Of a stretch of 64,000 nucleotides of DNA, positions 7,491 through 32,944 are shown piece by piece. Below the pieces are notes generated by a model. The model searched no databases and had not been told where the DNA came from. It worked only from the letters and a program-made list of their open reading frames with translations. The position numbers were made by a program, and so were the translations under genes. Location of the stretch: NCBI GenBank assembly GCA_964194555.1, contig CAXMMT010000078.1, positions 10,576 through 74,575 on the forward strand, given 5' to 3'. Position 1 is the first letter of the stretch; each line of letters starts with the position of its first letter. The stretch is from an uncultured Boseongicola sp. Its GTDB lineage: Bacteria; Actinomycetota; Acidimicrobiia; Spongiisociales; ZC4RG35.

Positions 7491-9122
7491 TCATGTGGCC
7501 ACCGGGATCTCCCGATCGCGGAGAAACTCGGCGAGTTTCTCCTCGGCCTGGTCGCCGAAAAGGATCCTGACGGCTTCGTCGAGGCCGGGGGACTCGATGA
7601 CGTCACTGTCGGGTATGACTTGGGTGATTTTGGAGCGTCTGCGAAGAAAGTCCTCCAGCTTGGTGACCATCTCGGTGTCCGCGGCCAGATGCAACTCGAC
7701 CCGGACGTAGTCGGCGCTTTCGATGATGTCCTCACCCATCGCCGGGTCCTTGCGGATCTCATCGAGCATCCCAAAGGCGCGGCGGCCGTATCGACGCCAC
7801 AACCGCTCGGAGAGGGCTTCGAGACCCTCGGTCGACCGAAGATCGTCAAGATGCATCAGCCGGGCCTGACGAAAGAACTCCGTTCGCGTGTGGCTAACCG
7901 GCTCTCCATACCAGTTGTGGGTGTCTGGCTCCAGGGGAACGCCTAGAGCCTCAACCGCGTCGGCGACCTCTTCGCCGACGTTCAGACAGTCGGTGAGCTT
8001 CCCCCCGAAGATCGTGATAACGCTTCGCTTGGTGTCTGTCTCGACCTCGTGCTTCCGCGAGAGCTTGGTCCAGTCGACATCCTCACCGACGGAGCTGTCG
8101 ACTCTCACCACCAGGGAACGGACACCACTGCGGTCGGCGATGACATCTGACGGGGTCAGCGGTGATGCAAGGTCTAGCCGTCGGTTGATCTGCTCCAGCA
8201 GAAAGTCACGGTCCTCATCCGTGACTTTCGTGAATGGCGAATCGACCCGGGTGTCGGTTGTACCGATCACCGACCGCATGCCCATTGGGATCACGTAGAA
8301 CAGCCGCTTGGTGTCGTCATAGAAAGCAAGAACCCTGTCTCTTGGTGTGAGCTGAGGAACGATGAGATGGATGCCTTTGGAGAAAACCACCCGATGCTCA
8401 GTGCTCACAGCGAACTGATCGTTGAGCTCACCGACGAAAGGGCCAGTCGCGTTGATCAGGACGCGACAGGTACAGGAGAATGGATCCTCCCCCGTTTCGA
8501 CATCGCGTAGCGTCACCAGCCAGCGCCCACCCTGATAGTCGGCATCCACCATTTCGACATAGTTGACAGCTTTTGCTCCGGCATCGAGAGCCGATCTCAC
8601 GAAGCCAAAGACAAACCTCGAATCGTTGTCCGACAGATAGGCGTCGTAGTACTCGATCCCACCGCGAGCCCGGCTGGTGTCGATGATGGGTTCTATCTGC
8701 TCGATCCTCTTCGGGGTGAGCAGTCGCGGTCGATGGGTCTTGAAGCCTCCGATCACCCAATAGGCCACTGAGCCAAGGCCGGCCAGCCACGGTGGGTAAG
8801 GAGAGGCGTCGTCGAGCGTGGCGAGAAAACTGATGGGCTTGACATTGTCCGGGTAGGCCCGCACCAGCCTGTTTCGAGATAGACAAAGCTTGCGAACCAA
8901 AAGCAGCTCGAATCCCTCCAGGTATTTGAAGCCTCCCCACACCAGGTTCGAGGAGGTCTGGCTGGTGAATCCGCCAAAATCCCCGCGATCGACAAGGGCA
9001 ACCTCGGCGCCTCGGCCGGCCAGTACCGCTGCGGAGACGGCTCCGTTGATCCCGCCACCTATGACCAGGGCATCGAATGAGCCGTCACGAATCCTGGCGA
9101 TGCTGGTGCTTCGCAGAGTCAC
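7491..9122 (-). CDS. glpD: Aerobic glycerol-3-phosphate dehydrogenase (FAD-dependent)
   Basis: N-terminal FAD fold FDALVIGGGINGAVSAAVLAGRG...SSNLVWGGFKYLE and overall 543-aa GlpD-like layout. Confidence 0.85.
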   Translation of the reverse strand: MTLRSTSIARIRDGSFDALVIGGGINGAVSAAVLAGRGAEVALVDRGDFGGFTSQTSSNLVWGGFKYLEGFELLLVRKLCLSRNRLVRAYPDNVKPISFLATLDDASPYPPWLAGLGSVAYWVIGGFKTHRPRLLTPKRIEQIEPIIDTSRARGGIEYYDAYLSDNDSRFVFGFVRSALDAGAKAVNYVEMVDADYQGGRWLVTLRDVETGEDPFSCTCRVLINATGPFVGELNDQFAVSTEHRVVFSKGIHLIVPQLTPRDRVLAFYDDTKRLFYVIPMGMRSVIGTTDTRVDSPFTKVTDEDRDFLLEQINRRLDLASPLTPSDVIADRSGVRSLVVRVDSSVGEDVDWTKLSRKHEVETDTKRSVITIFGGKLTDCLNVGEEVADAVEALGVPLEPDTHNWYGEPVSHTRTEFFRQARLMHLDDLRSTEGLEALSERLWRRYGRRAFGMLDEIRKDPAMGEDIIESADYVRVELHLAADTEMVTKLEDFLRRRSKITQVIPDSDVIESPGLDEAVRILFGDQAEEKLAEFLRDREIPVAT

Positions 9123-9190
9123 CGACTGATGCTTTCCCTACCTGCATAGGGTTTCTCCGCCCGGGGTTGAATGTTGCGGAGCAAGTCCGC

Positions 9191-10037
9191 CTACTTGTCC
9201 TGGGAGATGACGAATCCGCTCATGAACGGCTTCTGCATCGCGATGAACACTATTGCCGGAGGGATCGACGCGATGATCGCGGCCAACATCAAAGGGCCGA
9301 AGGTAAGCGAGCCGCCAACATTCAGCAGCGTCTGCATCGCGACCTGAACCACCTGCGCGTCATCGTCGCGGATGATCAAGCTCGGCCAGAGGAACATGTT
9401 CCACGTATAGACGAATTGGATGACGAAGAGCGCTGCGATGATGTTCCAGGACAGCGGAATCAGGACCTTGGTCAAGAACTTGTACGGTGAGGCTCCGTCG
9501 ATCTGAGACGCTTCGAGCAATTCGGACGGCATGTTGGCGAAATGCTGACGGAACAGAAACGCACCGGTCGCCGATGCGAGGAACGGCACCGTGATGGCAG
9601 CCATGGTGTCCTGCCATCCAAAACCCGCCACCAGTCGGAACATGGCGAGGATCATCACCTCGGTCGGCATCATGAGAGTGACGAGAACAAAGAAGAAGAC
9701 GATCCACTTGCCCCGAAACTTGAAGTAGACGAAGGCAAGCCCGGCGAGCAGCGACAGGATTGTCTTGCCGATAGTCACCCACAGCGACTGCTGGAGCGAG
9801 TTCCACATCGCAGTGCTGAAGTTTCGTTTCACCCAAACGTCATCGAAGTTCGATGCCAATGCGCTGCCCGGTGTGAACTGGAAAGAGAAGATCTCCCCGT
9901 TGGTTTGGGTCGCAATCAGCATGGCGTAGAGAAGCGGGAAGGCCAGGACCAGAACCGTGGCTGTGAGGGCGATGTGGAAAGGCCATTGCCTGCCGCGCAC
10001 AAATCCCTTGTGCTGAACTCCGGCTGATAACCCGGCC
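9191..10037 (-). CDS. ABC transporter permease (CUT1 family, UgpE/MalG-like)
   Basis: EAA loop motif ASQIDGASPYKFLTKVLIPL with 6 TM helices. The start is probably TTG immediately after the upstream stop; the longer track ORF overlaps the preceding permease. Confidence 0.7.
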
Positions 10038-10040
10038 AAC

Positions 10041-11420
10041 TCAGGCCCCCCCGTAGCTGACGCGCTCGCCACTGGTGCGGAACTGCCAGAGGGTGACACC
10101 GATAACCGCGGCGAACAGCAGGACAGACTGTGCGGCGCCACGACCCAGATCACCGTTGTTGACACCAATGCGAATGATCTCGTAGATCGCCACCGACGTC
10201 TTGCCGGCAGGGGCGCCCTTGGTCATGAAATCGATGGTGGCGTAGATGTCAAAGAAGGCATATGTGAGGTTGGTGACAAGAAGGAAGAACGTGATCGGTG
10301 ACAGGGCAGGGATCACGATCTTGGTAAAACGCTTCCAGGCGGACGCGCCATCGAGTATCGAAGCCTCGATCTGAATGATGGAGACCGTTTGCAGACCGGC
10401 CAGATAGAAGAGAACGTTGTACCCGAGGATCTTCCAACCGCTGGCCATGATGATGGCGGCCTGGGCGAGAACCGCGCTCTCCCGATAGTTGGGGGCGTCG
10501 ATGCCGAACCAGTTTTCCATTACGTAATTGAAGATCCCCGCGGTGGGATCAAAGATCATGAAGAACAAGATTCCTGCGACAGCAGGTGAGATGGCGTAAG
10601 GCCAGATGAGCAGGGTCCGATATATTCCCCCACCGCGAATCTTTCGGAACGCAAGGTAGGCGATACCCAGGCCACCGATCATCCCCACAGCCACGATCCC
10701 GACAGTGATGATGACTGTGTTCAGGTAGACCGGCCGGTAGGCGACTTGACCATCGCCACCAGGGGAGAAGATCGCATAGAGCGCTACGAACACCGAAAGT
10801 GCCGCAGCCAAGGAAGCGAGTTCCGCTCCTCGATGACCCAGCGATCCCGGCGAGGCGGAGCGGCGCCACCATCTCGCCCCGTAGATAGCGCCGATCGAGA
10901 TGAGGGGAATCGCCACCAGCTTGACCGGGTCGGTGATGAGGAGTTCGGTGAAGTTGCCGAAGCAAACGTCCAGAGACTTTGGGGCGCCGAGACGCGCCAG
11001 CTTCGTCGAGAGTGTGAATGTCTGCGCTGCCGGTGTGTAGAGAAACACCGCGAGAATGATCAGAGTGGGAGAAAGAAGGGCCCAGGGCACCCACCAGCCG
11101 AGATTGAATCCCCCCGACCTGATCTCCCCGGTCATCCCCGACTCGTCGGACCTCTCACCGTCGGCGCGGTCATAGAAGGCCTTGGCAACGATGAGAGCCA
11201 GCCAAGAGCCACCCGCCATGAGCCCGTAGGCCAATAGGTGGTCGACACCGGAGGTTTCTGGTGCAAAACCGCATTGGCCCATTGCCAGAGGGGTGACAGC
11301 AGCACCCGCGACCGATGCGGTGGTTCCGATACCCAGTCGCCGAGGGGTCCGGTATCGGGGAGTCCTCGCCAAATAGAGAGGTCCCAACACCGCAGCAATG
11401 ACGAGACCGATTATCAGCAT
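10041..11420 (-). CDS. ABC transporter permease (CUT1 family, UgpA/MalF-like, with N-terminal extension)
   Basis: EAA motif EASILDGASAWKRFTKIVIPAL and multiple TM helices. The exact start is uncertain. Confidence 0.7.
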   Translation of the reverse strand: MLIIGLVIAAVLGPLYLARTPRYRTPRRLGIGTTASVAGAAVTPLAMGQCGFAPETSGVDHLLAYGLMAGGSWLALIVAKAFYDRADGERSDESGMTGEIRSGGFNLGWWVPWALLSPTLIILAVFLYTPAAQTFTLSTKLARLGAPKSLDVCFGNFTELLITDPVKLVAIPLISIGAIYGARWWRRSASPGSLGHRGAELASLAAALSVFVALYAIFSPGGDGQVAYRPVYLNTVIITVGIVAVGMIGGLGIAYLAFRKIRGGGIYRTLLIWPYAISPAVAGILFFMIFDPTAGIFNYVMENWFGIDAPNYRESAVLAQAAIIMASGWKILGYNVLFYLAGLQTVSIIQIEASILDGASAWKRFTKIVIPALSPITFFLLVTNLTYAFFDIYATIDFMTKGAPAGKTSVAIYEIIRIGVNNGDLGRGAAQSVLLFAAVIGVTLWQFRTSGERVSYGGA

Positions 11421-11508
11421 GCAGCTATACGACGATTCACAATCAGGTGGTCAGTTTCGTTAGAGAAGGTGGGGTAGCGAAAACCGCTACCCCACTTTCT
11501 GTCTTCTG

Positions 11509-12930
11509 TCAGCCTCCGAAGAGGGTTTCGTACTCAGTCAGGATCTTGTTGGCTTCTTCGTTGGCCGCGCCCATGCGCTCAGCCACATCCAGGTCGTTCA
11601 CCAGGATGTCTTCGATGGCGAGAGTGATCACATCGCGAATTGCAACGAAGTTGCCAAGCAACGCACCAAGCGATGCCGGAGTGTTCTCCGCGGCTGCGAG
11701 TTGATCCGAGGCCACCAGACTGTTCGGGCTCTCGGCGTACCAACCCTCTGTCTCCAGCAGATCCACCGCATCCTGTGTGATCGGGATGTAGCCGGTGATC
11801 TGGTGCCACTCCGCTGCGTTGGCGGCATTGGAGAAGAAGTTGAGAAACGCCAGAGCGCCATCCTGTGTCACGTCGTCCATGCCGTCGAGCATCCAGATCG
11901 TCGCGCCACCGATGAGGTTGCCGACGTAGTCGACATCTCCATTGTGTGGCATGAAGCTGGCTTCGACGCCGAACCCGGCGTCTGCTCCGCCCTCTGTGAG
12001 GAGAGTCGCGTCCGAACTCGAGTAAATCAGCATGGCAACTTCCTGGGCGTAGAAAGCGTTGGCTGTTCCGTCCCAGTCACGCTGTGCACCGGTGTAGACG
12101 TAGTGGCCCTTGTCGGCCATGTCCTTCCACCAGCCGATGTAGTCGACCATTGCGTTTGAGTCGAGGAACACTTCGGTCGCCCGGCCGGTTCGGCCGTTGT
12201 CGGCGTTGGCCAGCAACGCGCCCTGCTGTCCGAGACTCTGCTCGACGAACCAGCCGTGGTTCGGCCAGGTCATACAGGCAGAGGGTCCGTCTGCCAGCGC
12301 TGCGATCTTCTCGCAAGCAGCCTCTACTTCGTCCCATGTGTCAGGAATCTCGGTCACCCCGGCGGCGTCGAGAATGTCCGAGTTGGAGAACATGATCGCC
12401 GAGGATGTGTTCCAGGGCATCGAGTAGAACGAGCCATCCACTGTGTAGTAGTTCCGAGCGGCGTCAACCACCGAATCGAGAACCACCGGCACTCCGAGAA
12501 TCTCGGTACGACCAGCGATGGCCTCGGTTACCGACGCGAAGATCGGGTTTCCTCCGGCATCGACAGCGTCGAGAGCCTGTCGAGTTGCAGCCTCGAAGAA
12601 ATGGATCAGCCCAGGTGGGTCACCACTATCCACGGCGAGCACAGCCGCGTCAAACACGTCGTTATACGAGGCGAAAGACACAACATCGATGTTGTAATCG
12701 GGGTGAGCGGCATTGAAATCGGCCGCTTTTTCCTGAGCGAAGCCCAATCGAGCCTCATCAGAGAAGGCAACCCAGAATTCAATATCGGATACGCCTGCCC
12801 CATCGCCACCGACAGTGGTAGCGGCGTCGCCGGCAGCTTCGGTGGTGTCCGTCGAGGAACCATCTCCACATGCAGCAACGATCAACGCTATCACGGCCAG
12901 TAAGGCAAATAGTCGAATCTTGGAATTCAT
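11509..12930 (-). CDS. ABC transporter substrate-binding lipoprotein (extracellular solute-binding family 1; possible sn-glycerol-3-phosphate/glycerophosphodiester binding)
   Basis: Signal peptide with lipobox LIVAAC. SBP family-1-like sequence. Operon order SBP-permease-permease sits next to glpD. Confidence 0.7.
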   Translation of the reverse strand: MNSKIRLFALLAVIALIVAACGDGSSTDTTEAAGDAATTVGGDGAGVSDIEFWVAFSDEARLGFAQEKAADFNAAHPDYNIDVVSFASYNDVFDAAVLAVDSGDPPGLIHFFEAATRQALDAVDAGGNPIFASVTEAIAGRTEILGVPVVLDSVVDAARNYYTVDGSFYSMPWNTSSAIMFSNSDILDAAGVTEIPDTWDEVEAACEKIAALADGPSACMTWPNHGWFVEQSLGQQGALLANADNGRTGRATEVFLDSNAMVDYIGWWKDMADKGHYVYTGAQRDWDGTANAFYAQEVAMLIYSSSDATLLTEGGADAGFGVEASFMPHNGDVDYVGNLIGGATIWMLDGMDDVTQDGALAFLNFFSNAANAAEWHQITGYIPITQDAVDLLETEGWYAESPNSLVASDQLAAAENTPASLGALLGNFVAIRDVITLAIEDILVNDLDVAERMGAANEEANKILTEYETLFGG

Positions 12931-16647: not shown

Positions 16648-17052
16648 TCAGATTTCGCTCTGCCCGGCCTGATCTGTCAACAGGCTCTCCACCAGAGCCT
16701 CAATCTCATCGCGGATCGCCCTGACGTCCTCCAACGGTTTTTCGGACGGGTCTTCGAGAGCCCAATCGAGGTAGCGCTTGCCTGGTATCACCCGGCAACT
16801 GTCGCCACACCCCATCGTCACGACGACATCGGCTGCCTCGAGCCGCTCGTCGGTCCAACGCTGTGGCCGTCGGTTCGAGATATCGATTCCCTTTTCGGCC
16901 ATGGCCACCACGACGACCGGATTGATCAACTCGACAGGCTCCGAACCTCCCGAGAACACCTCGACTTCGCCGCCCGAGAGTTGACGCATGAACCCGGCCG
17001 CCATCTGAGAGCGGCCCGCGTTGTGGACACAGAGGAAGAGAACACTGGCCAT
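16648..17052 (-). CDS. Arsenate reductase / low-molecular-weight phosphotyrosine phosphatase family (ArsC, thioredoxin-coupled type)
   Basis: LMW-PTP P-loop VLFLCVHNAGRSQMAAGF. The likely start is MASVLFLC. Confidence 0.7.
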   Translation of the reverse strand: MASVLFLCVHNAGRSQMAAGFMRQLSGGEVEVFSGGSEPVELINPVVVVAMAEKGIDISNRRPQRWTDERLEAADVVVTMGCGDSCRVIPGKRYLDWALEDPSEKPLEDVRAIRDEIEALVESLLTDQAGQSEI

Positions 17053-17087
17053 ACCCCCATGATGCCATTGATCGGACACCCCGATAA

Positions 17088-18080
17088 TTGTGCCCCGATA
17101 GGGTCACCAGCATGTCCGGGTTGGTAAACGCGCAGGTTCGTGTCCGCGATGATCTCATCGAAATGGCGGAGCGATCATTCGCAGCGATTGCGACGCCAGG
17201 AGGGTCCCTCTCCGGAGAGGAACGGGTTGCGTTGGCGGAAGCCGCCAGGGGCTCAGAAGTGAGCGGCCGACTCCAGGAGTTCGCCCGTCATCTGTACTCC
17301 AGCCCTGCAACGGTCGCTCTCGAGCATGTCAGGCACGCGGCGAGCGACGCCGGTGACCCCCAGACCGTGGAGACAATCGGAATCGTTGCCAGACTCTCGG
17401 CGCTGGACCGACTTCACACTGTGCTTGGCGTCGATCTGGAGCCTCTCCCTACTCCGCAGCCTGGTCTGGCGACCGGAGAGATCGTCAGAGGCCTCAAACG
17501 TCGCCGGGGACACGTGCCAATGCCACCAGGACCGATCCCGGTGACACTCGACTTGGTGCCATTCGAGGCTGAAGCCTTTCAGTCCATGTTCGGACCCCTG
17601 TACATGACGGAAGAGCAGATGGGTGATCCGCTGTTCGCCCGGGACCCTGGCTTGAACACACCACAACTGGAGACGATTGCGGCGCGCATCTCAATGCTCA
17701 ACGAGTGTTTCTACTGAGTATTCAGCCACGCATGGCGGCTCCGGTGGAGCGGCGAGATACACGAATACGACATACGGATCGAAGGGATCGCCGATCCGGC
17801 TATCGACGTTGGTGTCCCAGGCGGGATGGCGTTGGTCGGACTGGTAGACGACATGGTAAAAGGTGATACCACTGCTCGCCGGCAAGCTCGGGACGCCATT
17901 TTGAACGAGCTCGGACCCGAGTCGCTCGTCGACGCTGCCGCTGTCTTCGGCAATTTCGAGATGATGAACAGGGTCGCTGAAGGCACCGGGATCACGGTCC
18001 CCCCACAGGTGCTGGAGAGAGAAGCCGAGATGATCAAGACCCTCGGTCTCGAGGACACGCTGAAGAGCCAACACGTCTAG
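17088..18080 (+). CDS. AhpD-like (carboxymuconolactone decarboxylase family) selenoprotein; in-frame UGA at 17715-17717 read as selenocysteine
   Basis: Track ORFs 17088..17717 and 17826..18080 share one frame with no other stops between them. The sequence around the UGA is SMLNECFY-U-VFSH. With U as Cys this reproduces the AhpD/CMD active-site signature NxCxYCxxxH (CxxCxxxH), with U at the second Cys position. A candidate hairpin with a GGU loop sits at 17735-17753. Confidence 0.5.
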
Positions 18081-18090
18081 GAGCGGGCTC

Positions 18091-18708
18091 CTAAATGTGC
18101 AGAGGTCCCTCCGGAGTAGCGAGGCTCACCGATACGACCGCCGCAGCGCCAGCGACACAGCAAATATTGGGTATGTCTTCGGTCCATCTCGCCAGACGAG
18201 CCCTATCTCCGCTGAGCACGACCTCCTCGACTCCGGTGACGTTGCGATCGTGGATCACATCCGCTCTCCCTGGCATCTGGTCCTGGGGGACATACCATTC
18301 GATGAAGAAGGGCAGGAATTCCTCAACGGCAAGTTCCAAGCCTGCCACGCTCCACTTCAACTCGACGCCATCAGGCCTTAGTCGGCTCATGGCTGTCGGC
18401 TCCAGATCCAAACGGGTGCACACGGCACTCAAGTCATCGGTTCGGACGGAGATGGCATCGACGACGCCTGTAGCCCCAACCCGTCCGCTTGCCCATCTTC
18501 CAAAGGGGCTGGCATCGGCTTCTGATGGGTCGACGACCGCGACCAACTCGATATAGCTGTCACCGAGAGGGACGATGCGATTCGCCGTGCCGTGACCCGG
18601 ATGGCGGCCTCCCTCCACAGAATCGAGGCCAAAACGGTCTCTGAAGCTTCGGGCGCCCTCATCGAGGTCGCCAACACATACGATCAGGTGGTCGATCATG
18701 AGGTTCAC
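18091..18708 (-). CDS. VOC (glyoxalase/bleomycin-resistance-like) family protein
   Basis: MIDHLIVCVGDLDEGARSF...HPGHGTANRIVPLGDSYIELVAV matches the Glyoxalase-like fold pattern. Confidence 0.6.
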   Translation of the reverse strand: MNLMIDHLIVCVGDLDEGARSFRDRFGLDSVEGGRHPGHGTANRIVPLGDSYIELVAVVDPSEADASPFGRWASGRVGATGVVDAISVRTDDLSAVCTRLDLEPTAMSRLRPDGVELKWSVAGLELAVEEFLPFFIEWYVPQDQMPGRADVIHDRNVTGVEEVVLSGDRARLARWTEDIPNICCVAGAAAVVSVSLATPEGPLHI

Positions 18709-18870
18709 GGTGACAATCCTCGCAGGTACACAACCGTCATAGACTCATCCAATCGTGAAACGCTTCTCGCCTCTTCTGATTCTGGCGGTGGTTGCGGTTG
18801 TGGCCGCGGCTGTCCTGAAGAGCAACAACGAGGTCTTGCCACCCGAGACGTGGCAACCGGTAGAGCCTTC

Positions 18871-19506
18871 GTGAAGATTGGAGTCCTCGTCACCGGGGAC
18901 ACGGCAGTCAGGGCTGCCCACTCGCTCAGCGCCCATACCTCAGTAGACGAGGTGGTGGTCATCGGCCCTGCCACCAGCAAGAGCTTCAAGGTTGTGGATT
19001 CTGCCGAGGGTTGTGACCTTCTGATTGGCACCGGCGCCCAGGCGCCTTCGAGGGCGAGAAAGCACGCTGTGCCGCTCTTATGGGACGGCGAATCAGACGA
19101 AGAGGGTGTTGCCGTCTGGGGTGCCAATCCTCGCGGACTGACCCTTGCTCTTGCGTCTAGAGAGTCTGATCCGAGGCTTGTCGCCGTCGCGCACCCCGAT
19201 CTCGACGAAGGTTCCGACCACCAGTCGCGGTTTCCGGACCCTCTGGGGAGTCTGGGTGCCGTCGACAAGATCTACGGTGGCCAGCGTCTGGCCGAGGCCC
19301 AGTCGCCCAACGAGTTCGCCGCATGCCTGGCGATTGGCGCAGACAGAAGGGTGACCATCATCGACGACGCCGCCTTCATGTCCGGTATCGCCCTTGCAGC
19401 CGCCGTGGACATCGCCGACGGCAGTCCAAGTCCCGTCTGGGATGCCTCCCTCCCCTACCTTCGAGCAGCAATGGCCATGGGTTTGGTGATGGCAGAAGAC
19501 ATCTGA
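18871..19506 (+). CDS. Hypothetical protein (start assumed at GTG, VKIGVLVTG...)
   Basis: Codon-biased + frame. The longer track ORF would overlap the VOC gene, so a GTG start at 18871 is used. The antisense ORF 18705..19268 looks like low-complexity noise. Confidence 0.4.
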   Translation: MKIGVLVTGDTAVRAAHSLSAHTSVDEVVVIGPATSKSFKVVDSAEGCDLLIGTGAQAPSRARKHAVPLLWDGESDEEGVAVWGANPRGLTLALASRESDPRLVAVAHPDLDEGSDHQSRFPDPLGSLGAVDKIYGGQRLAEAQSPNEFAACLAIGADRRVTIIDDAAFMSGIALAAAVDIADGSPSPVWDASLPYLRAAMAMGLVMAEDI

Positions 19507-19528: not shown

Positions 19529-20029
19529 TTAGGAGAGCGTTATGGGGGGACTTTCCTCGGTCGGAATGTCGGCTTGATCGGCGGGAGGGATCACGGCGCC
19601 GTTGCCGTCGCGGTAGTCGGTCGGCGGGTGGAGAATCTGCTGCTGGGGCACCACCACCGGGTTGAGGGTCTCCTCGAGCACGACCACCTCGAGACCACCG
19701 ACCACATCAGAGACCAAGTTGTAGACAATGGCGAACGCCGTTGTCGATCCTGTCATGAGAACCCACCACACGACCGAGCCAAAGATCACAAACCGCAGGA
19801 ACTGTTCGGTGTTGGCAAAGGGCTGGGAGCCTTCCTCGATCAGTGTGATCTCAACAAGGAACGCCGTTATCTGATCGGGGATCCCCGCCCGCTCGAGCAC
19901 CGCCCAGAAGATCACAAACCCGAGCACCAGAGCGAGGCCCACCACAGCCCAAACCACCGCTGACACCTTCAAGACCGTCCACGGGTCGATCTTTCGAATT
20001 ATGCGTCTGACACGGCGGACAGTTGCCAT
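19529..20029 (-). CDS. DUF3566 family transmembrane protein (conserved downstream of gyrA in Actinobacteria)
   Basis: Two TM helices, Arg-rich N-terminus, and the same position as Mycobacterium Rv0007. Confidence 0.6.
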   Translation of the reverse strand: MATVRRVRRIIRKIDPWTVLKVSAVVWAVVGLALVLGFVIFWAVLERAGIPDQITAFLVEITLIEEGSQPFANTEQFLRFVIFGSVVWWVLMTGSTTAFAIVYNLVSDVVGGLEVVVLEETLNPVVVPQQQILHPPTDYRDGNGAVIPPADQADIPTEESPPITLS

Positions 20030-20105
20030 AGGGAACTCCGGGGTTGTGGAGAAAGTCTAAGAGAAACCTTGACCAGACCAACGTAACGCGGTCAATGGAG
20101 GTTCC

Positions 20106-22544
20106 TCAACCAATCTCTTCGGTGACCACCGTCACCGCCGACAACTCGTTGCCCTCGCCAACGTCGATCACCTTGACGCCCGTCGTGTCCCGCTTTTGAC
20201 GGCTGATCTTGGCAACGGAGGTACGAATGCCTACACCCGCCGAAGATATCAAGAAGACCTCATCTTCCTTCTCGACGGCTCTCACCGCCACCAGATTTCC
20301 GCGGACGCGTGTGATCTTGAAGGCTTTGACTCCCATCCCTCCCCGTGCCTGGCGGCGGAACTCTGACATGACCGTTCGTTTCCCATATCCACCTGCGGTG
20401 AGAAGCAAGACCTCGTCACCTTCGACGTTGGAGACAGCGGCCACTACCTGGTCGCCCTCGCGGAGGCGGATCCCGCGGACACCCTGTGTCCCGCGCCCCA
20501 TGCTTCGCAGATCCGACTCGGCGAAGCGGATGCCCACTCCTCCCCTTGTGAAAATGAGGATGTCGTTCTCTCCGTTGGTAGGGCGCACCGAGACCAACTC
20601 GTCGTCCTCTGTCAGATTGATGGCGACGAGAGTCTGGTTACGGGACTCATACTCCTTGAACTCGGTCTTCTTCGCCTGTCCCCTCTTGGTGACCATCACC
20701 AGATATCGACCGGTCTCGTAGTCCCGCGTGTCGATGATCGATTGGACGACCTCGTCGGGCCCCAGGGGCAGAACGGCCTGTGCCAGCACACCTTTCGCGG
20801 TCCGGGATTGTCTCGGTATCGCGTGTGCCTTGATGCGATGCACAAGACCTCTGTTCGTGAAGAAGAGAAGATAGGCGTGCGCCGTGGTGTGCACCAGATG
20901 GGTGATGACATCGTCGCCGGCGACCTCCGCCGCCTTGACTCCCCTGCCACCACGGGTCTGGGTCCGATAGGTGGATGCCGGCACCGACTTCACATATCCC
21001 GCCTGGGAGACGGTAATGATCAGCTCGTCGTCGGCAATGAGGTCTTCGAGACTCAGATCACCCTCGTCGGGGATGATCCTGCTGAGGCGCTCGTTGGCGA
21101 ACTGCTCACGGATGGCACCCATCTCTTCTTTGATGATGGACCATCTTGTCTTCGGGTCGGCCAGAATCGCCTCCAGATCGGCAATCCGATGCTGAAGCTC
21201 GGCGAGCTCGGTACGGAGCTTGTCAACCTCGAGTGCTGTCAGTCGACGCAGCGGCATGTCGAGGATGGCGTTGGCCTGAATCTCACTCAACTCGAAGTTC
21301 TCGATCAGGTTGGCCCGCGCCTCGGCGGTGTCTGCCGAACCGCGAATGATCCTGATGACTTCGTCGATGCTGTCGACAGCGATGATCATGCCCTCGAGGA
21401 TGTGGGCCCTCGCGTTGGCCTGATCGAGTCTGAATTGGGTCCTTCGCTCGATGACCTCCATCTGATGATCGAGGTAATAGCCCACCATCTCGGCCAGACC
21501 GAGAGTCCGGGGGACACCATCCACCAGGGCCACCATGTTGTATGCAAAAGAGTCCTGAAGCGGGGTGTTCTTGTAGAGCTGGTTGAGGACGACCTGAGGG
21601 ATGGCATCCCGTTTGATCTCGATGACCAGACGGGTCCCAACCCGGTCTGAGGACTCGTTTCGGACCTCGGCGATCCCGGTCATGCGCTTTGAATCGACCA
21701 GATCCTTGATCTTGGCGACAATGCGCTCGATGGAAACTTGATAAGGGAGCTCGGTTACGACCACGGCCGTCCGGCCCTTGCGGACCTCCTGCACGTCGCA
21801 TACCGCCCGGATCTTGACCGAGCCACGGCCGGTGATCAGTGCCTCCTTCATAGAGGTCGCTCCGACGAGAAAGCCGCCTGTTGGGAAGTCTGGCCCCTTC
21901 ACGAACCCGAGGAGATCTTCCGACGTGGCGTCGGGATGATCAATGGTGTGGAGAGCCGCATCAATGACCTCACCGAGGTTGTGGGGTGGGATATTGGTGG
22001 CCATGCCAACCGCTATCCCCTGTGACCCATTGACCAGGAGATTGGGATATCTCGACGGAAGCACTGTCGGCTCTTGGAGTTCGCCCGAGTAGTTATCGGC
22101 GAAATCCACGGTGTTCTCGTTGATGCTTTCGAGAAGATGAGTGGAGAGTTTGGTGAGCCGGCACTCCGTGTACCGAGCCGCGCCCGGTGGGTCGTCGACT
22201 GTCCCGAAGTTCCCCTGGGGGTCGATGAGAAGATGCCGCATCGAGAAATCCTGACCCATGCGGACAAGGGCGTCGTATATGGCCTGATCCCCGTGCGGGT
22301 GGTAATTGCCCATTACGTCCCCGACGACCTTCGAGCACTTGCGGTGTGCCGAAGCAGGACTGATGTTGTTCTCGAACATCGAGTAGATGATTCGACGCTG
22401 AACGGGTTTGAGACCGTCCCTGACATCCGGAAGAGCACGAGAGACTATCACCGACATCGCGTAGTCGATGAAACTCGCCTCCATCTCCGCGGTGATCTCG
22501 ATCTCGGGAAAGCTCTCCGTTGTGGTGTGTTCGTCTGTCATGAC
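20106..22544 (-). CDS. gyrA: DNA gyrase subunit A
   Basis: [25 protein letters not shown] and the active-site Tyr region. The likely start is MTDEHTT at 22544, just after the gyrB stop. The length (812 aa) rules out an intein. Confidence 0.9.
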
Positions 22545-22554
22545 TCCAAAGGGC

Positions 22555-24546
<1,992 letters not shown>

Positions 24547-24596
24547 TTACCCGGAAACACCGACAGAAACGAATTCATCGCCAATACAAATCGACT

Positions 24597-24932
24597 TCAT
24601 GCCCTTCCTGGCGGGAGCACCTCAATCGAGTCGATCACACCCTCTCCGAACCGGTTTCTGAGTGTCTCCAGAAGACTGGCTTCGCCGTATCGGAGAAACG
24701 CCACCATGGACGGTGCTGAGGCCTCGATGACCAGGGTTCGACCTCTCACAAACATTGGCTTGGATCGCCCCACCCAGGGTTGACCTGCCAGAGCTTCCCA
24801 CTCGCCGTTCACTTGAGCCATCAACACCGGGTCCGGCAGACCCAAACGAGTGAAGACATCGTTCAAAGACTCCGAGAACGGCTCCAGGTCGTTACCGGCG
24901 CTCACTCGATAGTCCCTCCTCTCACCTTCCAT
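24597..24932 (-). CDS. DUF721 (DciA-like) protein
   Basis: Sits between recF and gyrB as Mycobacterium Rv0004 does. C-terminal pattern W..vG...P.f.r.gtLvIea.s......L (EWEALAGQPWVGRSKPMFVRGRTLVIEASAPSMVAFL). Confidence 0.55.
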   Translation of the reverse strand: MEGERRDYRVSAGNDLEPFSESLNDVFTRLGLPDPVLMAQVNGEWEALAGQPWVGRSKPMFVRGRTLVIEASAPSMVAFLRYGEASLLETLRNRFGEGVIDSIEVLPPGRA

Positions 24933-25996
24933 GTCGACCCCGAGATGGGAATGTCCTCGGGGTGGGTGGATGTGATGAGTGTCTGTGTATGGGAAGGCAA
25001 CGACCCGGCAAGCGCCGCCGCACGGCCGGGGTCGAGCTCAGAAAAGACATCGTCGAGAAGCAGAATCGGAGACTCGCCCATTGCCTCCGTTATAGCGCGG
25101 TGGGCAGCCAGTCTCACCGCGAGGGCAATCGTTCGCTGCTCTCCTTGACTTGAATGGGTACGCGTTTGGTGGCCATCAATCGAGAAACCCGGCTCGTCCC
25201 TGTGAGGACCGACGGTTGTCATCCTCCTTTCATAGTCGTTGCGGCGGCTCTCCTCAAGAGCCTTGGCAATCAACTCGGCGAATTCCCCGGCAGAGGCCGG
25301 GCGCAGTTCCCCCTCTCCCCATGATGTCTTGTAGGTGAATGTCGCCACAGTCCCGTCCCGTGCGATCTCCTCATAAGCATCAAGCAGAACCGGCGAGAGG
25401 GTCTCGATCACTCGTGCCCGACGAGCCATCACCCGTCCTGCGGACTGGGCCAATCTCGAATCCCAAACCGAGAGCGTCGCTTCGTCGTGCCCGCCGGTCT
25501 TCAGGAAGGCATTTCTTTGTCGCAACGACCTTTCGAACTCTGATTGATCCAGATCGGCGGACGGCCAGAGTTGGATGGCTACGGCATCGAGGAGGCCGCG
25601 ACGGTATGAAGGGCCTCTCTTCACCAGGTCGAGATCCTCCGGAAGAAACGCCACCACCCGCACCACTCCGAGAAGATCTGCCGTCCTCTTGAGTCTCGTC
25701 TTGTCCACTTGCGTCCTTCGAGCACCTTGACGTGGGAGTTCGATCTCCACGAGACGACTTCGCTCCTCGCTGGTCAACCCCGCCCTGATCACGGCCCTAT
25801 CGGATTCGTTGCCGATTACGGCTGAATCCGGAGAGGATCTAAAGGACTTCAGGGTGGCGAGATAGCCAATCGCTTCCAAGACGTTGGTCTTGCCGGCGCC
25901 ATTAGGACCGATGAGGAGGTTGACCCCGGGTTCAGGGCTCCATTCGAGTGATTTGTACGACCGAAAATCGAGAAGAGAAAGCCAATCAATCCGCAT
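24902..25996 (-). CDS. recF: DNA replication and repair protein RecF
   Basis: Walker A GPNGAGKTNVLEAI, the SMC-like signature, and its position after dnaN. Confidence 0.9.
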   Translation of the reverse strand: MRIDWLSLLDFRSYKSLEWSPEPGVNLLIGPNGAGKTNVLEAIGYLATLKSFRSSPDSAVIGNESDRAVIRAGLTSEERSRLVEIELPRQGARRTQVDKTRLKRTADLLGVVRVVAFLPEDLDLVKRGPSYRRGLLDAVAIQLWPSADLDQSEFERSLRQRNAFLKTGGHDEATLSVWDSRLAQSAGRVMARRARVIETLSPVLLDAYEEIARDGTVATFTYKTSWGEGELRPASAGEFAELIAKALEESRRNDYERRMTTVGPHRDEPGFSIDGHQTRTHSSQGEQRTIALAVRLAAHRAITEAMGESPILLLDDVFSELDPGRAAALAGSLPSHTQTLITSTHPEDIPISGSTWKVRGGTIE

Positions 25997-27079
25997 TCAG
26001 ACGCGCACGGGCATCAACAAGTAGAGGAAATTCCCCTCGGTCCCGGTGTCGAGGACACTTGGTTTGTACGAATCGATAACCTGGATCCGCACCGACTCAC
26101 CGGGCATGGCCATGACTCCATCCTGGAGATAACGAGGATTGAAAGCAATCGTCACTTCCTCGTCACTTCCGGTGAATTCGCCTGAAAGATGTTCGGATTC
26201 AGCACCAACATCCTGGCGGCTCACCGTTACCTCGACGCCACCGTCCATGAGCTTGAGCCGAACTGGGATGTGATCTTCGGCCACGAGCGACACTCGGTCC
26301 AAAGCCGCGAGGAGCTCTTCTTTGTCGAGGATGACCTGGTTGGGATAGGTCTCCGGCAACAGTGACTGGTATTTGGGGAAATTCCCGTCAATCAGACGAA
26401 GACGCAGGGTCCCCCTGTCCGACGAGAACACCGCTTCCCGCTCCCGCAGCTGTGCGGTTACCTTGGGAGCGCCAACCGTGCGTGCCATCTCCCGAAGTCC
26501 CCGAGCGGGAACAAGACCCGTTCCTTCCAAACCGACCCCGGCGAGGTCTCGCTTGGCAAGCCGATACGAGTCGGTAGCCACCATGCGGAGTCCCTCCTCC
26601 GAACTCTCGAAGAGAACCCCGGTCAAAATCGGCCGAGCTCCGTCACCCGACGCGGCAATAGTGACCTGATTGATAGCCTCGGCGAGTTCTTCACCATCTA
26701 CTTCGACGCCTTCCGAAACAATGTCTTCCTGCACCGGAAAGTCCTCGACGTTGAGAGGACGTAGCGTGAAGCGTGGGCCATTTCCCTGAATCTCGATGTC
26801 CGTGTCCGACACCCCGATCGTGACTTGCCCGCCGGGCATCTTGCGGACTGCCTCGGAAAGAAGCCGTCCCGGGATCACGGCCCTTCCTTCCTCGATGACC
26901 TCCACCTCTGCTTGGGTCCGGACAGTCATGTCCAGATCTGTGCCAGTCACGCGGAGACTCGATCCAGAGACCTCACAAAGCAACCCTTGAAGCACCGGCA
27001 GCGCTGTCCGGGTACCAACCGCCCGGTTGGCCCGGCCAAGTACATCGGCAAGGTCGTCCCGCTGAGCACGGATTCTCAC
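25997..27079 (-). CDS. dnaN: DNA polymerase III beta sliding clamp
   Basis: 360-aa three-domain beta-clamp sequence with a GTG start at 27079, sitting between dnaA and recF. Confidence 0.9.
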   Translation of the reverse strand: MRIRAQRDDLADVLGRANRAVGTRTALPVLQGLLCEVSGSSLRVTGTDLDMTVRTQAEVEVIEEGRAVIPGRLLSEAVRKMPGGQVTIGVSDTDIEIQGNGPRFTLRPLNVEDFPVQEDIVSEGVEVDGEELAEAINQVTIAASGDGARPILTGVLFESSEEGLRMVATDSYRLAKRDLAGVGLEGTGLVPARGLREMARTVGAPKVTAQLREREAVFSSDRGTLRLRLIDGNFPKYQSLLPETYPNQVILDKEELLAALDRVSLVAEDHIPVRLKLMDGGVEVTVSRQDVGAESEHLSGEFTGSDEEVTIAFNPRYLQDGVMAMPGESVRIQVIDSYKPSVLDTGTEGNFLYLLMPVRV

Positions 27080-27251
27080 AGGTAGTTGTCCCTTCTTCTC
27101 TTATTACAAAGTTTCATTTCAAGACCAGTAGTTGTAGTAGGGGTCTGTGGATTTGTGGAATAGCTGTGTTTCTTTCGTGGCCGATTGGGGATTATCCGTG
27201 GGAAATAGGTGTGCATCTCGTGGTGATAACTGGTGACTTTCCCTGGATAAC
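27080..27251. promoter_or_regulatory. Putative oriC core (dnaA-dnaN intergenic region): DnaA-box cluster plus an AT-rich segment
   Basis: Nine-mers close to TT(A/G)TCCACA on both strands: TGTGGATTT, TGTGGAATA, TTATCCGTG, GGTGATAAC, CTGGATAAC, TGTGGAAAC. The AT-rich stretch CTTATTACAAAGTTTCATTTCAAG abuts the dnaN start. Mycobacterium and Streptomyces place oriC here. Confidence 0.6.
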
Positions 27252-28631
27252 TCAAGACCCTGTGGAAACACCACCACCTTTCCTCAGCTCCTGTGTTAAT
27301 TGATTGACTCGATCGAAGACCGCTCTGTCAGATCGGAGAATCCGCTTCACCTTCTCGACTGAGTGGAGAACAGTGGTGTGATCCCTGTTGAAGTGACTAC
27401 CTATCTTCGGAAGTGAGAGATCGGTCAGTTCACGGCACAAGTACATCGAGATCTGACGACAAAGGACCAGGGGTTGACGGCGACTGGAGCTGAGGACATC
27501 TTCTACGGAGAACCCAAAAGCCTGGGCAGTGGTTCTGATGATCGTCTCAGGTCCGAGAGGTACGGGCTCGTCGGTGGCAATGATGTCATGCAACACACGT
27601 TCGGCGGTATCGAGGTCAATGTCTCTCCGGTTCAACGCCGACCAGGCTGTCACTCTTGTCAAGGCACCTTCTAACTCCCGAATGTTATCTGATACCAGAC
27701 CTGCTATGTACTCGAGAACCTCGATGGGCACCGGACGCGGGGCGAACTCGGCGTTTGATTTGAGAATCGCCAGTCGAGTCTCGACATCAGGTGGCTGTAT
27801 GTCGGTGAGGAGCCCCCACTCGAAACGACTGCGCAGCCGGTCTTCGAGGGTTGACAGATTTCTCGGGTGACGGTCGGAGCTGATGACCATTTGCTTTCCC
27901 GACTCGTAGAGAGAGTTGAACGTGTGAAAGAACTCCTCGAGGATCTGCTCCTTGCCCTCGAAGAACTGAACATCGTCTAGGAGAAGGATGTCAACACCGC
28001 GGTATCTGTGCTTGAAGGCATCGGGTCTCTTGCGCCGGATCGAGTCGATGAAATCGTTCAAGAAGTTCTCGGACGAGACGTAGCGGACAACAAGATCGGG
28101 GTACATCTCGAGGGCCTCGTGGCCAACGGCGTTGAGAAGATGCGTCTTGCCAAGTCCCGCACCGCCATATATGAACAATGGGTTGTAATGGGCGCCGGGT
28201 TGCTCGGCCACGGCCATGGCAGCCGCCCATGCGAATCGGTTGGACTGACCCACCACAAAACTCTCGAACCGATACCTCGAGATGAGGTTGGTGGCTTTTG
28301 TGGGTGTGGAGGGGTCTTTGGAGGTGTCGACGGTTGCGGAATCTTCGCCAAGTGGAAGGGGTTGCTCAATCGGAGCGACATCGCTGACGCGGTAAAGAGG
28401 GCTTCCCTCGGTCGAGTAGGCCGATTGATATGCGGCGTCGACGAGTTCACTGTGTTTGTCACGTACCCAACGAAGGTGGAACTCCGTTGGTGCGATCAGG
28501 ATCAGGGTGTCTTCGTCATGGTCTGCCTCGAGCCTGGAAAGCCAGGTTTCCCAATTTCCTTTGGATACCCCGGCGCGCAGGGTATCTCTGAATTCCGTCC
28601 AGTTGTCACTTGCTCTTTGTGTTTGGGTCAA
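27252..28631 (-). CDS. dnaA: Chromosomal replication initiator protein DnaA
   Basis: AAA+ GGAGLGKTHLLNAVG and the domain IV DNA-binding helix. The likely start is TTG at 28631, preceded by GGGAGGAG with 7-nt spacing. Confidence 0.9.
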   Translation of the reverse strand: MTQTQRASDNWTEFRDTLRAGVSKGNWETWLSRLEADHDEDTLILIAPTEFHLRWVRDKHSELVDAAYQSAYSTEGSPLYRVSDVAPIEQPLPLGEDSATVDTSKDPSTPTKATNLISRYRFESFVVGQSNRFAWAAAMAVAEQPGAHYNPLFIYGGAGLGKTHLLNAVGHEALEMYPDLVVRYVSSENFLNDFIDSIRRKRPDAFKHRYRGVDILLLDDVQFFEGKEQILEEFFHTFNSLYESGKQMVISSDRHPRNLSTLEDRLRSRFEWGLLTDIQPPDVETRLAILKSNAEFAPRPVPIEVLEYIAGLVSDNIRELEGALTRVTAWSALNRRDIDLDTAERVLHDIIATDEPVPLGPETIIRTTAQAFGFSVEDVLSSSRRQPLVLCRQISMYLCRELTDLSLPKIGSHFNRDHTTVLHSVEKVKRILRSDRAVFDRVNQLTQELRKGGGVSTGS

Positions 28632-29086
28632 AAGGCCGCTCCTCCCAGTGGCCGAGTTGTTCACAGATCCATCCACACCTGTGGAAACGTCTGTGCACAT
28701 CCTCCAGAGAATTCAAATTTCAACCGCGGAGTGATGGTTCACTCACCGGTGACAGATGAGGTAGCCACTCTCCTCGGATATCGAGTCCAGCGAGTATCGG
28801 TGTTGGAGAAGTGGCAGTCAAGACCGCGAGAATCCCCGGTGTGGAAGACTTCCTCTACATCTATCCACAAAGATAATCCCAGGTAGACAGACCTTTTTCC
28901 ATTACCTGCCTGACGGGTTGAGGATGACATCCGTGACCAAAGCGTGTTCTGCTTCTTTTCGCGACCTTTCCCAATTCTTCGCGATTGCGACAGAAAGTGA
29001 GGGCACGATCGACAGTTGGGCTTTGACATAGGTTTCCAACAGTCCGTAACCTGTGACGACCCTTTCCCTCTACCCAATGTTTTGTC
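28632..29086. promoter_or_regulatory. dnaA / rpmH divergent promoter region with DnaA boxes
   Basis: ATCCACACCTGTGGAAAC, TGTGGAAGA, and CTATCCACAAAGATAATCC. Confidence 0.5.
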
Positions 29087-29221
29087 ATGAAAAGGACCTA
29101 TCAACCCAAAGTACGCCGTCGCCGCCGCCGTCACGGTTTCCGGCACCGAATGCAGACTCGCGCCGGCCGCGCCACCATCAGTTCGCGTCGTCAAAAGGGT
29201 CGGAAGCGGCTCACTGTCTGA
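29087..29221 (+). CDS. rpmH: 50S ribosomal protein L34
   Basis: Translates to [44 protein letters not shown] (44 aa). It is absent from the ORF track because it is below the track's 60-aa minimum. Confidence 0.9.
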
Positions 29222-29222
29222 T

Positions 29223-29537
29223 CTGGAAACACTCCGAAACGCCCGGGACTTTCGTAGAGTCCTGAGCAAAGGCAAGCGGAGCCGCAGCGGCGGAATCGTC
29301 CTGGTCGGGTCGCCAGGCCAACCAGGGCCTCCTCGTGTTGGGCTTGTTGTTTCCAGGGGCAGCGGAAACGCCGTGACTCGAAACCGTATCAAGAGACGGT
29401 TGCGTCACGCGGCCCGCGAACTGCCACTACAACCAGGAACGGATTACATCATCATCGCCAGCGGCCAGGTCTCAGAGGTCGACTACACCCAGGTGCAGAC
29501 ATGGCTCGACCGCGCCCTCGAGGGTGTGAAGAGATGA
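29223..29537 (+). CDS. rnpA: Ribonuclease P protein component
   Basis: LETLRNARDFRRVLSKGKRSRSGGIVLV...GNAVTRNRIKRRLRHAAREL matches RnpA. No canonical start was found within the 22 bp of frame examined upstream of 29223, so the start codon is uncertain. Confidence 0.7.
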   Translation: METLRNARDFRRVLSKGKRSRSGGIVLVGSPGQPGPPRVGLVVSRGSGNAVTRNRIKRRLRHAARELPLQPGTDYIIIASGQVSEVDYTQVQTWLDRALEGVKR

Positions 29538-29779
29538 TTGGGTGGCTACGTCCTCGGAACCTGATGGTTGGTCTGATCGGTATTTACCAGAAAGTGGTAA
29601 GTCCTGGAATTGGGACCAACTGCCGGTACCAGCCGACATGCTCATCGTATTCGGCGGAGGCAATCCAGAGATTTGGCGTGATTCGAGGGGGCTGGCTGGG
29701 TCTCAAGCGCATCGGAAGATGCCATCCTCTGCGCCCCGGGGGTTATGACCCTGTGCCTGATAACCGGAGAGCCCAATAA
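29534..29779 (+). CDS. yidD: Membrane protein insertion efficiency factor YidD
   Basis: YQKVVSPGIGTNCRYQPTCSSYSAEAIQRFG...RIGRCHPLRPGGYDPVP. The start overlaps the rnpA stop by ATGA. Confidence 0.75.
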   Translation: MIGWLRPRNLMVGLIGIYQKVVSPGIGTNCRYQPTCSSYSAEAIQRFGVIRGGWLGLKRIGRCHPLRPGGYDPVPDNRRAQ

Positions 29780-30636
29780 TGGGGGAGATATTCGACACGC
29801 TGATCAGGGCCCTGGGATCGGTCCTCGACTTCTACTTTGATCTACTCACACCACTTGTCAGTGACGGTTTGGCCTATGGCCTCGCAATCATCCTTCTCAC
29901 CATCACGATCAACGTGGTCGTTTTTCCACTCACCCTCAAACAGACCAGGGCGACGAGGGCGTTCACCGAGATTCAGCCAAAGATCAAGAAGATCCAGGCA
30001 GAATACAAGGACGACCCTCAGGAGATGCAGCGTCGTCTCATGGAGACCCAAAGGGCCGCGGGCGCCACACCCGGTGGATGTCTTCTTCCGCTTCTGGTCC
30101 AGATGCCGATCTGGTTTGCGCTCTTCCGGTTGCTCAGAGAGCCCGAGACTTATATCAGCGCCGATTCTGCGCTCGGAATGTCTTTGACCAATGGGGGCGT
30201 GGGCACGTTCTTGGGAATGATGCTTGGGGAGTCCCCATCAGCAGCGATGGCCAACGGCGTCTTGTACGCCATCCCCTATCTGTTGATGATTGCCTTCATG
30301 GTTGCCACCCAGTATGTGCAGATGTGGCACTCCACTTATGGCCAGGATCGGCCAGATCAGAAGGGCGCCGGGGCCCAACAGGCCATCACCAAGATAATGC
30401 CCCTGTTCATTGGTGTCATATCATGGAACTTCCCGGCGGGGTTGGTGCTCTACTGGACCACATCAAACCTGTTTCGTCTCGGACAGCAGGTTCTGATTTT
30501 CAAGATCGATGGGCGCCCAACCCCACCAAACAAGGCCGAACCAGAGCCGGATCAGGATGACGGCACTGATGGGAGCAAGCCAGGTAATCCGCAGCAGGGT
30601 GCCGCTGACAAGCGCCGTCGGCGCAGGAGGAGATGA
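29779..30636 (+). CDS. yidC: Membrane protein insertase YidC (short Gram-positive type)
   Basis: Five TM helices, the 60 kDa inner-membrane-protein motif, and a C-terminal basic tail RRRRRRR. Confidence 0.85.
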   Translation: MGEIFDTLIRALGSVLDFYFDLLTPLVSDGLAYGLAIILLTITINVVVFPLTLKQTRATRAFTEIQPKIKKIQAEYKDDPQEMQRRLMETQRAAGATPGGCLLPLLVQMPIWFALFRLLREPETYISADSALGMSLTNGGVGTFLGMMLGESPSAAMANGVLYAIPYLLMIAFMVATQYVQMWHSTYGQDRPDQKGAGAQQAITKIMPLFIGVISWNFPAGLVLYWTTSNLFRLGQQVLIFKIDGRPTPPNKAEPEPDQDDGTDGSKPGNPQQGAADKRRRRRRR

Positions 30637-30637
30637 C

Positions 30638-31504: not shown

Positions 31505-31520
31505 TCCAGCAACATCTCGG

Positions 31521-32941: not shown

Positions 32942-32944
32942 GAG

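Follow-up and report, generated by a model that had tools for sequence, protein, structure and literature searches.

Does the TGA at window positions 17715-17717 end a protein, or is it read as selenocysteine (Sec) within the active site of a longer one? The codon lies in a 64,000-nucleotide stretch of DNA, referred to here as the window, which covers the part of the chromosome near oriC in an uncultured member of the Acidimicrobiia. This region carries dnaA, dnaN, recF, gyrB, gyrA, DUF3566, yidC, jag, parA, parB, trxB and dnaB, and its gyrA is 98% identical to the gyrA of the MAG BS2bin.4. Window positions 17112-18080 are interpreted here, with a probability of about 0.9, as one gene encoding a 322-residue AhpD-related selenoprotein (NF041238, the 'CFYU' family), in which the UGA would be read as Sec by means of a hairpin located a short distance downstream. 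The selenoprotein family to which the gene belongs has been on record since 2005 and is represented by a curated NCBI model, and the result is therefore the re-annotation of something already known. The features on which this interpretation draws are collected in Table 1.

Table 1. Features of the selenoprotein locus and its immediate neighbours (window coordinates).
Feature	Position	Strand	Basis or remark
ArsC / low-molecular-weight phosphatase-like protein, CX5R motif; divergent neighbour	16648..17079	-	
TTG extension of the mechanical ORF, probably untranslated	17088..17111	+	Homologues mostly begin at the equivalent of ATG 17112
Complete predicted selenoprotein gene	17112..18080	+	Met1 ... 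Sec202 ... Val322; family NF041238
Active-site segment E187-x11-C199-F-Y201-U202-x3-H206	17670..17729	+	Five-residue AhpD proton-relay pattern
Predicted Sec codon, Sec202, at the second Cys position of the AhpD CxxC	17715..17717	+	TGA in 24/24 loci; Cys in homologues and structures
C-terminal 120 codons completing the AhpD/CMD-like domain	17718..18077	+	dN/dS, structure alignments, 495 matches
SECIS-like hairpin inside the CDS, stems 17735-17741 / 17747-17753	17735..17753	+	Conserved register, invariant loop G
Terminal stop TAG of the selenoprotein gene	18078-18080	+	
Glyoxalase_3 (VOC) domain protein, convergent neighbour	18091..18708	-	PF13468, 123.8 bits; gyrA-proximal synteny block

Reading frame and start codon

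Mechanical ORF calling divides the locus into two plus-strand frames. The first (17088-17717) encodes 209 aa from a TTG and is terminated by the TGA, and the second (17826-18080) encodes 84 aa in the same frame, its start lying 108 nt past the TGA. When 17088-18080 is translated as a whole, 331 codons with one internal stop are obtained (...ISMLNECFY-stop-VFSHAWRLRWSG..., or, in its wider protein context, ...AARISMLNECFY-stop-VFSHAWRLRWSG...), and the codon context at 17703-17729 reads NECFY-TGA-VFSH. Counted from the ATG at 17112, this is one frame of 322 codons whose single internal TGA is the one under study. What the first-pass annotation had stated about the two ORFs, their shared frame and the lone TGA was reproduced by translation in every particular. 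The start codon is probably the ATG at 17112 (MSGLV...) rather than the TTG at 17088, because the N-terminal part of most homologues is 201 aa long. The tblastn matches in 25 genomes cover residues 1-322 of the protein.

Frame continuity across the TGA, taken alone, is not beyond chance. The window has a G+C content of 59%, and a scan of it detected about 90 in-frame TGAs that are flanked on either side by long open stretches. The finding rises above this background because of the catalytic motif and the comparative evidence described below; among the roughly 90 chance candidates in the window, no redox motif was found at any in-frame TGA other than that at 17715. A reassignment of UGA in the genetic code was also considered and rejected, since TGA terminates 18 of the 33 confidently identified window genes. 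It is the commonest true stop, and recoding at 17715-17717 would consequently be site-specific.

Family membership

With the UGA translated as Cys, the read-through protein matches the NCBIfam model NF041238 with a score of 205.6 bits (cutoff 175, E 1.2e-60), residues 65-315 aligning to model positions 81-354 of 357. This equivalog model bears the name 'AhpD_rel_CFYUT, alkylhydroperoxidase-related (seleno)protein'. A 2026 review describes NF041238 as a CxxU selenoprotein family and equates it with 'hypothetical protein 1' of the Sargasso Sea study (PMC13188914), a CXXU selenoprotein that was reported in 2005 without functional evidence (Zhang, Fomenko, Gladyshev; PMC1088965). The present protein shares with the family the CFYU motif, the in-frame TGA, a downstream SECIS-like hairpin, a length in the range of ~320-360 aa and the rarity of Cys homologues. 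It differs in the residue after Sec, which is Val in the present clade (CFYUV) and Thr in the family name, and in its length of 322 aa as compared with the 357-position model; otherwise, the two are indistinguishable.

The first-pass annotation had assigned the protein to the known AhpD-like selenoproteins. The family is indeed known, but it is NF041238, a sister of the classical 'AhpD-like' group of COG2128 / TIGR01926, whose members are among the most abundant selenoproteins in marine metagenomes (PMC2398784). Both belong to the same superfamily and have a CxxU with Sec in second place within an N-x-C-x-Y-U-x-x-x-H-type motif (PMC2398784), whereas the present family possesses an extra N-terminal lobe of ~165 residues. 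The match to TIGR01926 reaches 33.9 bits, below the trusted cutoff of 81.8, which points to a related but separate family, and the 2026 review likewise treats NF041238 as separate from 'AhpD-like' (PMC13188914). Alignment to the Pfam CMD profile (PF02627), which had been suggested as a check, gave 18.8 bits over residues 171-211 only, below the gathering threshold of 23; the segment downstream of the UGA nevertheless resembles the AhpD/CMD domain when it is compared with known structures, as described under the active site.

The residue at the UGA position

Comparison with homologues indicates which amino acid belongs at the position of the UGA. Among the database homologues, whose identity to the window protein extends down to 27%, 93 of 95 end exactly at ...CF[YF]. 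The corresponding genomic loci were retrieved by a scan of one genome per species with a 13-sequence alignment as the query. This returned 25 loci, mostly from Acidimicrobiia MAGs, together with Kiloniellales, Deltaproteobacteria and Thermoanaerobaculia bins and one genome labelled Acidobacteria. Of these loci, 24 cover the site, and in every one of them CFY is followed by TGA, and never by TAA, TAG or TGY.

Full-length homologues are rare, and those found carry Cys opposite the UGA. P0104 (NACFYCTRAH) and P0122 (NECFYCLLSH) are 36-38% identical to the window protein, and P0153 and P0171 are partial homologues of the Cys form. The pairing of Sec with Cys at the catalytic Cys is the classical signature by which selenoproteins are defined (PMC1088965). 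The proposal that the UGA occupies the second Cys of a CxxCxxxH motif, together with the alignment of Cys homologues that was recommended for checking it, is thus upheld by the family score above cutoff, by the TGA in 24 of 24 loci and by the Cys in the full-length proteins. Judged from these sequences, the protein is an AhpD-type redox enzyme whose active site very probably contains a selenocysteine, encoded by the in-frame UGA. As a separate observation, one family member, P0229, has lost both redox residues.

A SECIS-like hairpin downstream of the UGA

The hairpin GCGGCUCC-GGU-GGAGCGGC begins 17 nt past the UGA. Its stem contains a G.G mismatch at 17737/17751. In the family consensus, the apical loop spans 17742-17746 (5 nt), and its second position, 17743 (column 29 of the alignment), is an invariant G followed by G or U; in the window sequence, pairing of C17742 with G17746 is possible and leaves the GGU loop. 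The first-pass annotation had already named this hairpin as a candidate SECIS, and its position was confirmed; the G.G mismatch had gone unmentioned.

Conservation of the hairpin was assessed in a gapless RNA alignment of 23 sequences covering 50 nt from the UGA, in which helix columns 21-27 face columns 33-39. Paired cells amount to 86% in the hairpin register, compared with 24-50% after a shift of the 3' partner by 1-3 columns. Compensatory changes are present at three pairs, for example C-G to A-U at 22/38, and in one locus (L024) the whole stem is replaced. RNAalifold independently recovers the core helix 24-27/33-36. Since the core of the stem hardly varies, there is only modest covariation. 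Third-position entropy is the lowest of the gene at codons +6 to +12, at 0.61 bits versus a gene mean of 1.54 (7-codon windows). Leu+8 is encoded by CUC in 18 of 19 sequences and Ser+11 by AGC in 16 of 17, whereas for conserved four- to six-fold degenerate residues elsewhere in the gene the majority codon accounts for only 49% of cases. Folding of the single sequence 17706-17790 yields an unremarkable energy (z = -0.46). A search of Rfam at gathering and permissive thresholds returned no SECIS match, and no general bacterial SECIS model was apparent.

Two genes of the Cys form allow a further comparison. In L028 the hairpin is kept after a TGC codon, and in L030 it has been partly lost. The hairpin retained in L028 may be a fossil SECIS; the nucleotide conservation could thus partly reflect such a relic, or constraints on the peptide and on codon usage.

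The position, small loop and conserved G of bacterial SECIS elements have been described (PMC1088965). As in the E. coli fdhF type, the present hairpin lies within the coding sequence soon after the UGA and has a small apical loop with a conserved G and then a U; it differs in its short stem (4-7 bp) and in lacking an evident bulged U. By these sequence features, the hairpin at 17735-17753 fits a bacterial SECIS. In such a role, it would recruit SelB-GTP-Sec-tRNA(Sec) to the ribosome, and the UGA at 17715-17717 would be read as selenocysteine during translation.

A competing explanation accepts read-through of the UGA and dispenses with Sec: the codon might be decoded as Cys or Trp by near-cognate pairing, passed by hairpin-stimulated read-through, or filled with Cys by the Sec machinery under selenium scarcity. 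In its favor, downstream hairpins can stimulate read-through in general, and Sec insertion at this UGA remains a prediction. However, the affected site is precisely the catalytic Cys position, which is occupied by Cys in non-UGA homologues, and the position, small loop and conserved G of the hairpin match the descriptions of bacterial SECIS elements (PMC1088965). Moreover, NF041238 is curated as a selenoprotein family (PMC13188914), and Sec machinery is documented in at least one order of the Acidimicrobiia, namely the Actinomarinales, an order other than that of the present genome (bioRxiv 10.64898/2026.04.03.716425). Read-through of this kind is accordingly considered very unlikely, and insertion of Sec by way of the hairpin is preferred.

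Translation beyond the UGA

Another explanation holds that the TGA is an authentic stop, the product being a 201-aa protein that ends in CFY and the downstream frame being untranslated, a pseudogene remnant or a separate small gene with an internal start. Several observations favor this view. TGA is the usual stop in the genome, and gene callers split nearly every homologue in exactly this way. In addition, a search with ARAGORN, Rfam, NCBIfam (on 40 ORFs) and tblastn with E. coli SelA, SelB and SelD detected no tRNA-Sec, selA, selB or selD in the 64-kb window or in the 25 homologous loci (380 kb in total).

The sequence beyond the TGA, however, behaves as a coding region. In 24 of 24 loci, the frame continues without a stop through the 120 downstream codons of the window gene or their counterparts, with 113-154 stop-free codons past the TGA and a conserved U-x-x-x-H; the His of this motif, His206, lies just past the TGA and is invariant (present in 19/19 sequences). 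In comparisons of the window with ten homologues, dN/dS amounts to 0.14-0.25 past the TGA and to 0.12-0.24 before it. This similarity argues that the codons past the TGA are translated in the same frame, with purifying selection acting on them as it does upstream. An authentic stop shared by the homologues, which had been named as an outcome that would count against a selenoprotein, is therefore not what these stop-free and selectively constrained frames indicate. An internally started gene would also have to make do with a first in-frame ATG that lies 36 codons downstream, at 17826. Furthermore, a stop inside the catalytic CxxC would cost half of the AhpD domain, and the homologues of the Cys form are continuous proteins.

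The public databases preserve the missing halves of these genes. When the C-terminal 120 residues were used as a query, 495 representative matches were returned, nearly all of them orphan fragments (100-170 aa) with a start just past the TGA position. About 145 of the 150 best representative matches are fragments split at the UGA. Taken with the preceding evidence, termination at the TGA is highly improbable, and a single translated frame of 322 codons remains the preferred reading. The chance that the TGA stems from faulty sequencing or assembly, or from a mutation that recently inactivated the copy in this one genome, is negligible: 24 independent assemblies from several phyla share it, and 93 truncated database proteins imply it as well.

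Active site, fold and proposed chemistry

In a phmmer comparison with PDB sequences, residues 161-299, a stretch that includes the UGA position, align to 6k40 (AhpD of D. radiodurans), 2pfx, 2gmy and 2prr. The second Cys of the N-x-C-x-Y-C-x-x-x-H motif in these AhpD-family structures falls on U202, and their C-terminal helix '...f.mtNRva' falls on NFEMMNRVA of the window protein. This alignment across the UGA indicates that the downstream segment belongs to the AhpD/CMD domain. The contrary outcome, a segment unlike the CMD domain, had been named as one that would count against the selenoprotein interpretation; instead, the segment matches the C-terminal helices in these four structures.

The residues around the predicted Sec are strongly conserved. 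In family alignments, E187, C199 and F200 do not vary, and at least 90% of the sequences keep Y201. The proton-relay residues are Glu118/Cys130/His132/Cys133/His137 in M. tuberculosis AhpD and Glu36/Cys48/Tyr50/Cys51/His55 in PA0269 (PMC3141380), and the spacing of E187/C199/Y201/U202/H206 in the window protein (12-2-1-4) is identical to that of both proteins. The present protein differs from M. tuberculosis AhpD (1knc, 1gu9) and P. aeruginosa PA0269 in that Sec replaces the second Cys and in that it is about twice as long, with sequence similarity confined to the motif region.

Structural information comes from a predicted model of the Cys-form homologue P0122, which is all-helical (pLDDT 88.7, pTM 0.89). 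A Foldseek search with this model gave AhpD/CMD proteins as its top matches, and the best structural match of the two-lobed single chain is the eukaryotic Sestrin-2. According to the model, the protein is a two-lobed AhpD fold with its redox centre in the C-terminal lobe. The likeness to human Sestrin-2 (5cuf, 5t0n) is structural only and was obtained through the predicted model of a 38%-identical homologue; Sestrin-2 itself is 12% identical, eukaryotic and not a selenoprotein, and it is devoid of a CxxC/CxxU centre of this type.

These features suggest a plausible catalytic arrangement. Sec202 and Cys199 would form a CxxU redox centre on the all-helical AhpD/CMD fold, with Glu187, Tyr201 and His206 at the proton-relay positions defined in AhpD. 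The enzyme would probably cycle between a selenol/thiol and a selenenylsulfide state, thereby reducing a peroxide, a sulfenic acid or a disulfide. No ahpC or peroxiredoxin gene was found among the 40 larger window ORFs that were scanned. A more speculative and rather unlikely idea is that NF041238 comprises bacterial sestrin-like selenoenzymes that act on a substrate or partner outside the AhpC/AhpD system and whose chemistry effectively requires selenium; such a requirement, if true, would explain the rarity of the Cys forms.

Genomic neighbourhood

The divergent neighbour of the selenoprotein gene encodes an ArsC-like protein that scores ~76 bits against arsenate reductase models, under all of their cutoffs (157-215). 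The first-pass annotation had placed this gene 35 bp away on the opposite strand; the strand is correct, and the gap ranges from 8 to 59 bp depending on the start codons chosen for the two genes. The order ArsC-like / selenoprotein / Glyoxalase_3 / orf18592 / DUF3566 / gyrA is kept among Acidimicrobiia relatives, and synteny of the Glyoxalase_3 gene in particular is retained in loci L001-L005, L007, L009, L010 and L018.

This arrangement does not extend to the family as a whole. The ArsC-like gene adjoins the selenoprotein gene in the closest relatives only, and in distant loci the selenoprotein gene is flanked by unrelated ones, for example acetyl-CoA synthetase-like and enoyl-CoA hydratase genes. 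Across the homologous loci, no redox partner is conserved beside the gene. The earlier suggestion that the two genes form a thiol/selenol redox cluster was therefore rejected as unsupported: their adjacency is local synteny, limited to close relatives and to the gyrA-proximal block.

Significance

The main value of the finding lies in annotation. Gene callers report a 201-aa "hypothetical protein" and, apart from it, an orphan C-terminal ORF, and the expectation that they would split the gene in this way throughout the family proved correct for nearly all homologues deposited in public databases. Modest biochemical leads come from the conserved relay residues, the near-exclusive use of Sec and the sestrin-like two-lobe model; these leads open no new question. 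For the organism, the gene makes the use of selenocysteine by this uncultured Acidimicrobiia lineage very probable, and it predicts that selA, selB, selC and selD would be encoded elsewhere in the genome.

Genomic context of the selenoprotein gene

The window comes from the region around the replication origin in the chromosome of an uncultured member of the Acidimicrobiia. The genes of this region, at 19529-33799 and 57051-58403, are listed in the table together with the other features discussed here.

Features in and around the selenoprotein gene neighbourhood (window positions)
Feature	Position	Strand	Remark
Kinase-like protein, 287 aa	13175-14038	+	Top match: guanitoxin-pathway kinase GntI model
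Large multidomain protein, 855 aa	14054-16621	-	N-terminal adenylate/guanylate cyclase-like region
ArsC / low-molecular-weight phosphatase-like gene	16648-17079	-	Divergent from selenoprotein gene
304-aa ORF	18592-19506	+	Overlaps 18091-18708 (-)
DUF3566	19529-20029	-	
gyrA	20106-22625	-	
gyrB	22555-24486	-	
recF	24902-25996	-	
dnaN	25997-27079	-	
dnaA	27252-28700	-	
yidC	29779-30636	+	
jag	30509-31504	+	
parA	32132-32941	+	
parB	32945-33799	+	
105-aa ORF	34979-35296	-	Adjoins thioredoxin reductase gene
Thioredoxin reductase	35348-36391	-	TIGR01292, 416.9 bits, cutoff exceeded
Large multidomain protein, 1164 aa	36641-40135	-	N-terminal adenylate/guanylate cyclase-like region
dnaB	57051-58403	+	

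The ArsC-like product scores about 76 bits, well under the arsenate reductase cutoffs of 157-215, and its gene directly adjoins the selenoprotein gene in the closest relatives only. The 304-aa ORF gave no match in Pfam and NCBIfam searches, and its conservation among Acidimicrobiia relatives begins only at about residue 55-78. Its true start probably lies downstream of the called one; if so, the ORF would no longer seem to overlap the Glyoxalase_3 gene (18091-18708).

Some 18 kb separate the thioredoxin reductase gene from the selenoprotein gene, with no sign of a link between the two. The small ORF adjoining the reductase gene may encode a thioredoxin. Both cyclase-like multidomain products matched models only far under the family cutoffs; the 855-aa protein also matched TPR-protein models weakly, and the 1164-aa protein matched a kinase/cyclase fusion model. 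The kinase-like protein reaches 229 bits against GntI, short of the cutoff of 357, and its gene adjoins, at 7491-12930, genes for a ugpB/ugpA/ugpE-like ABC transporter and a glycerol-3-phosphate dehydrogenase.

Hairpin and redox residues in homologous genes

A GCUC-CGGGC-GAGC hairpin is kept at the SECIS position in a gene that carries TGC (Cys) opposite the UGA (locus L028, 3001-3954, encoding the homologue P0122), and is partly lost in a second Cys-form gene (L030, 903-1913). The L028 hairpin may represent a fossil SECIS, left after a recent change from Sec to Cys; alternatively, it may indicate that RNA does not drive all of the nucleotide conservation. In another full-length family member, P0229 (317 aa), both redox positions are replaced, the segment reading LNQSAFVLFTH as against NECFYUxxxH; the protein is presumably a non-redox paralogue.
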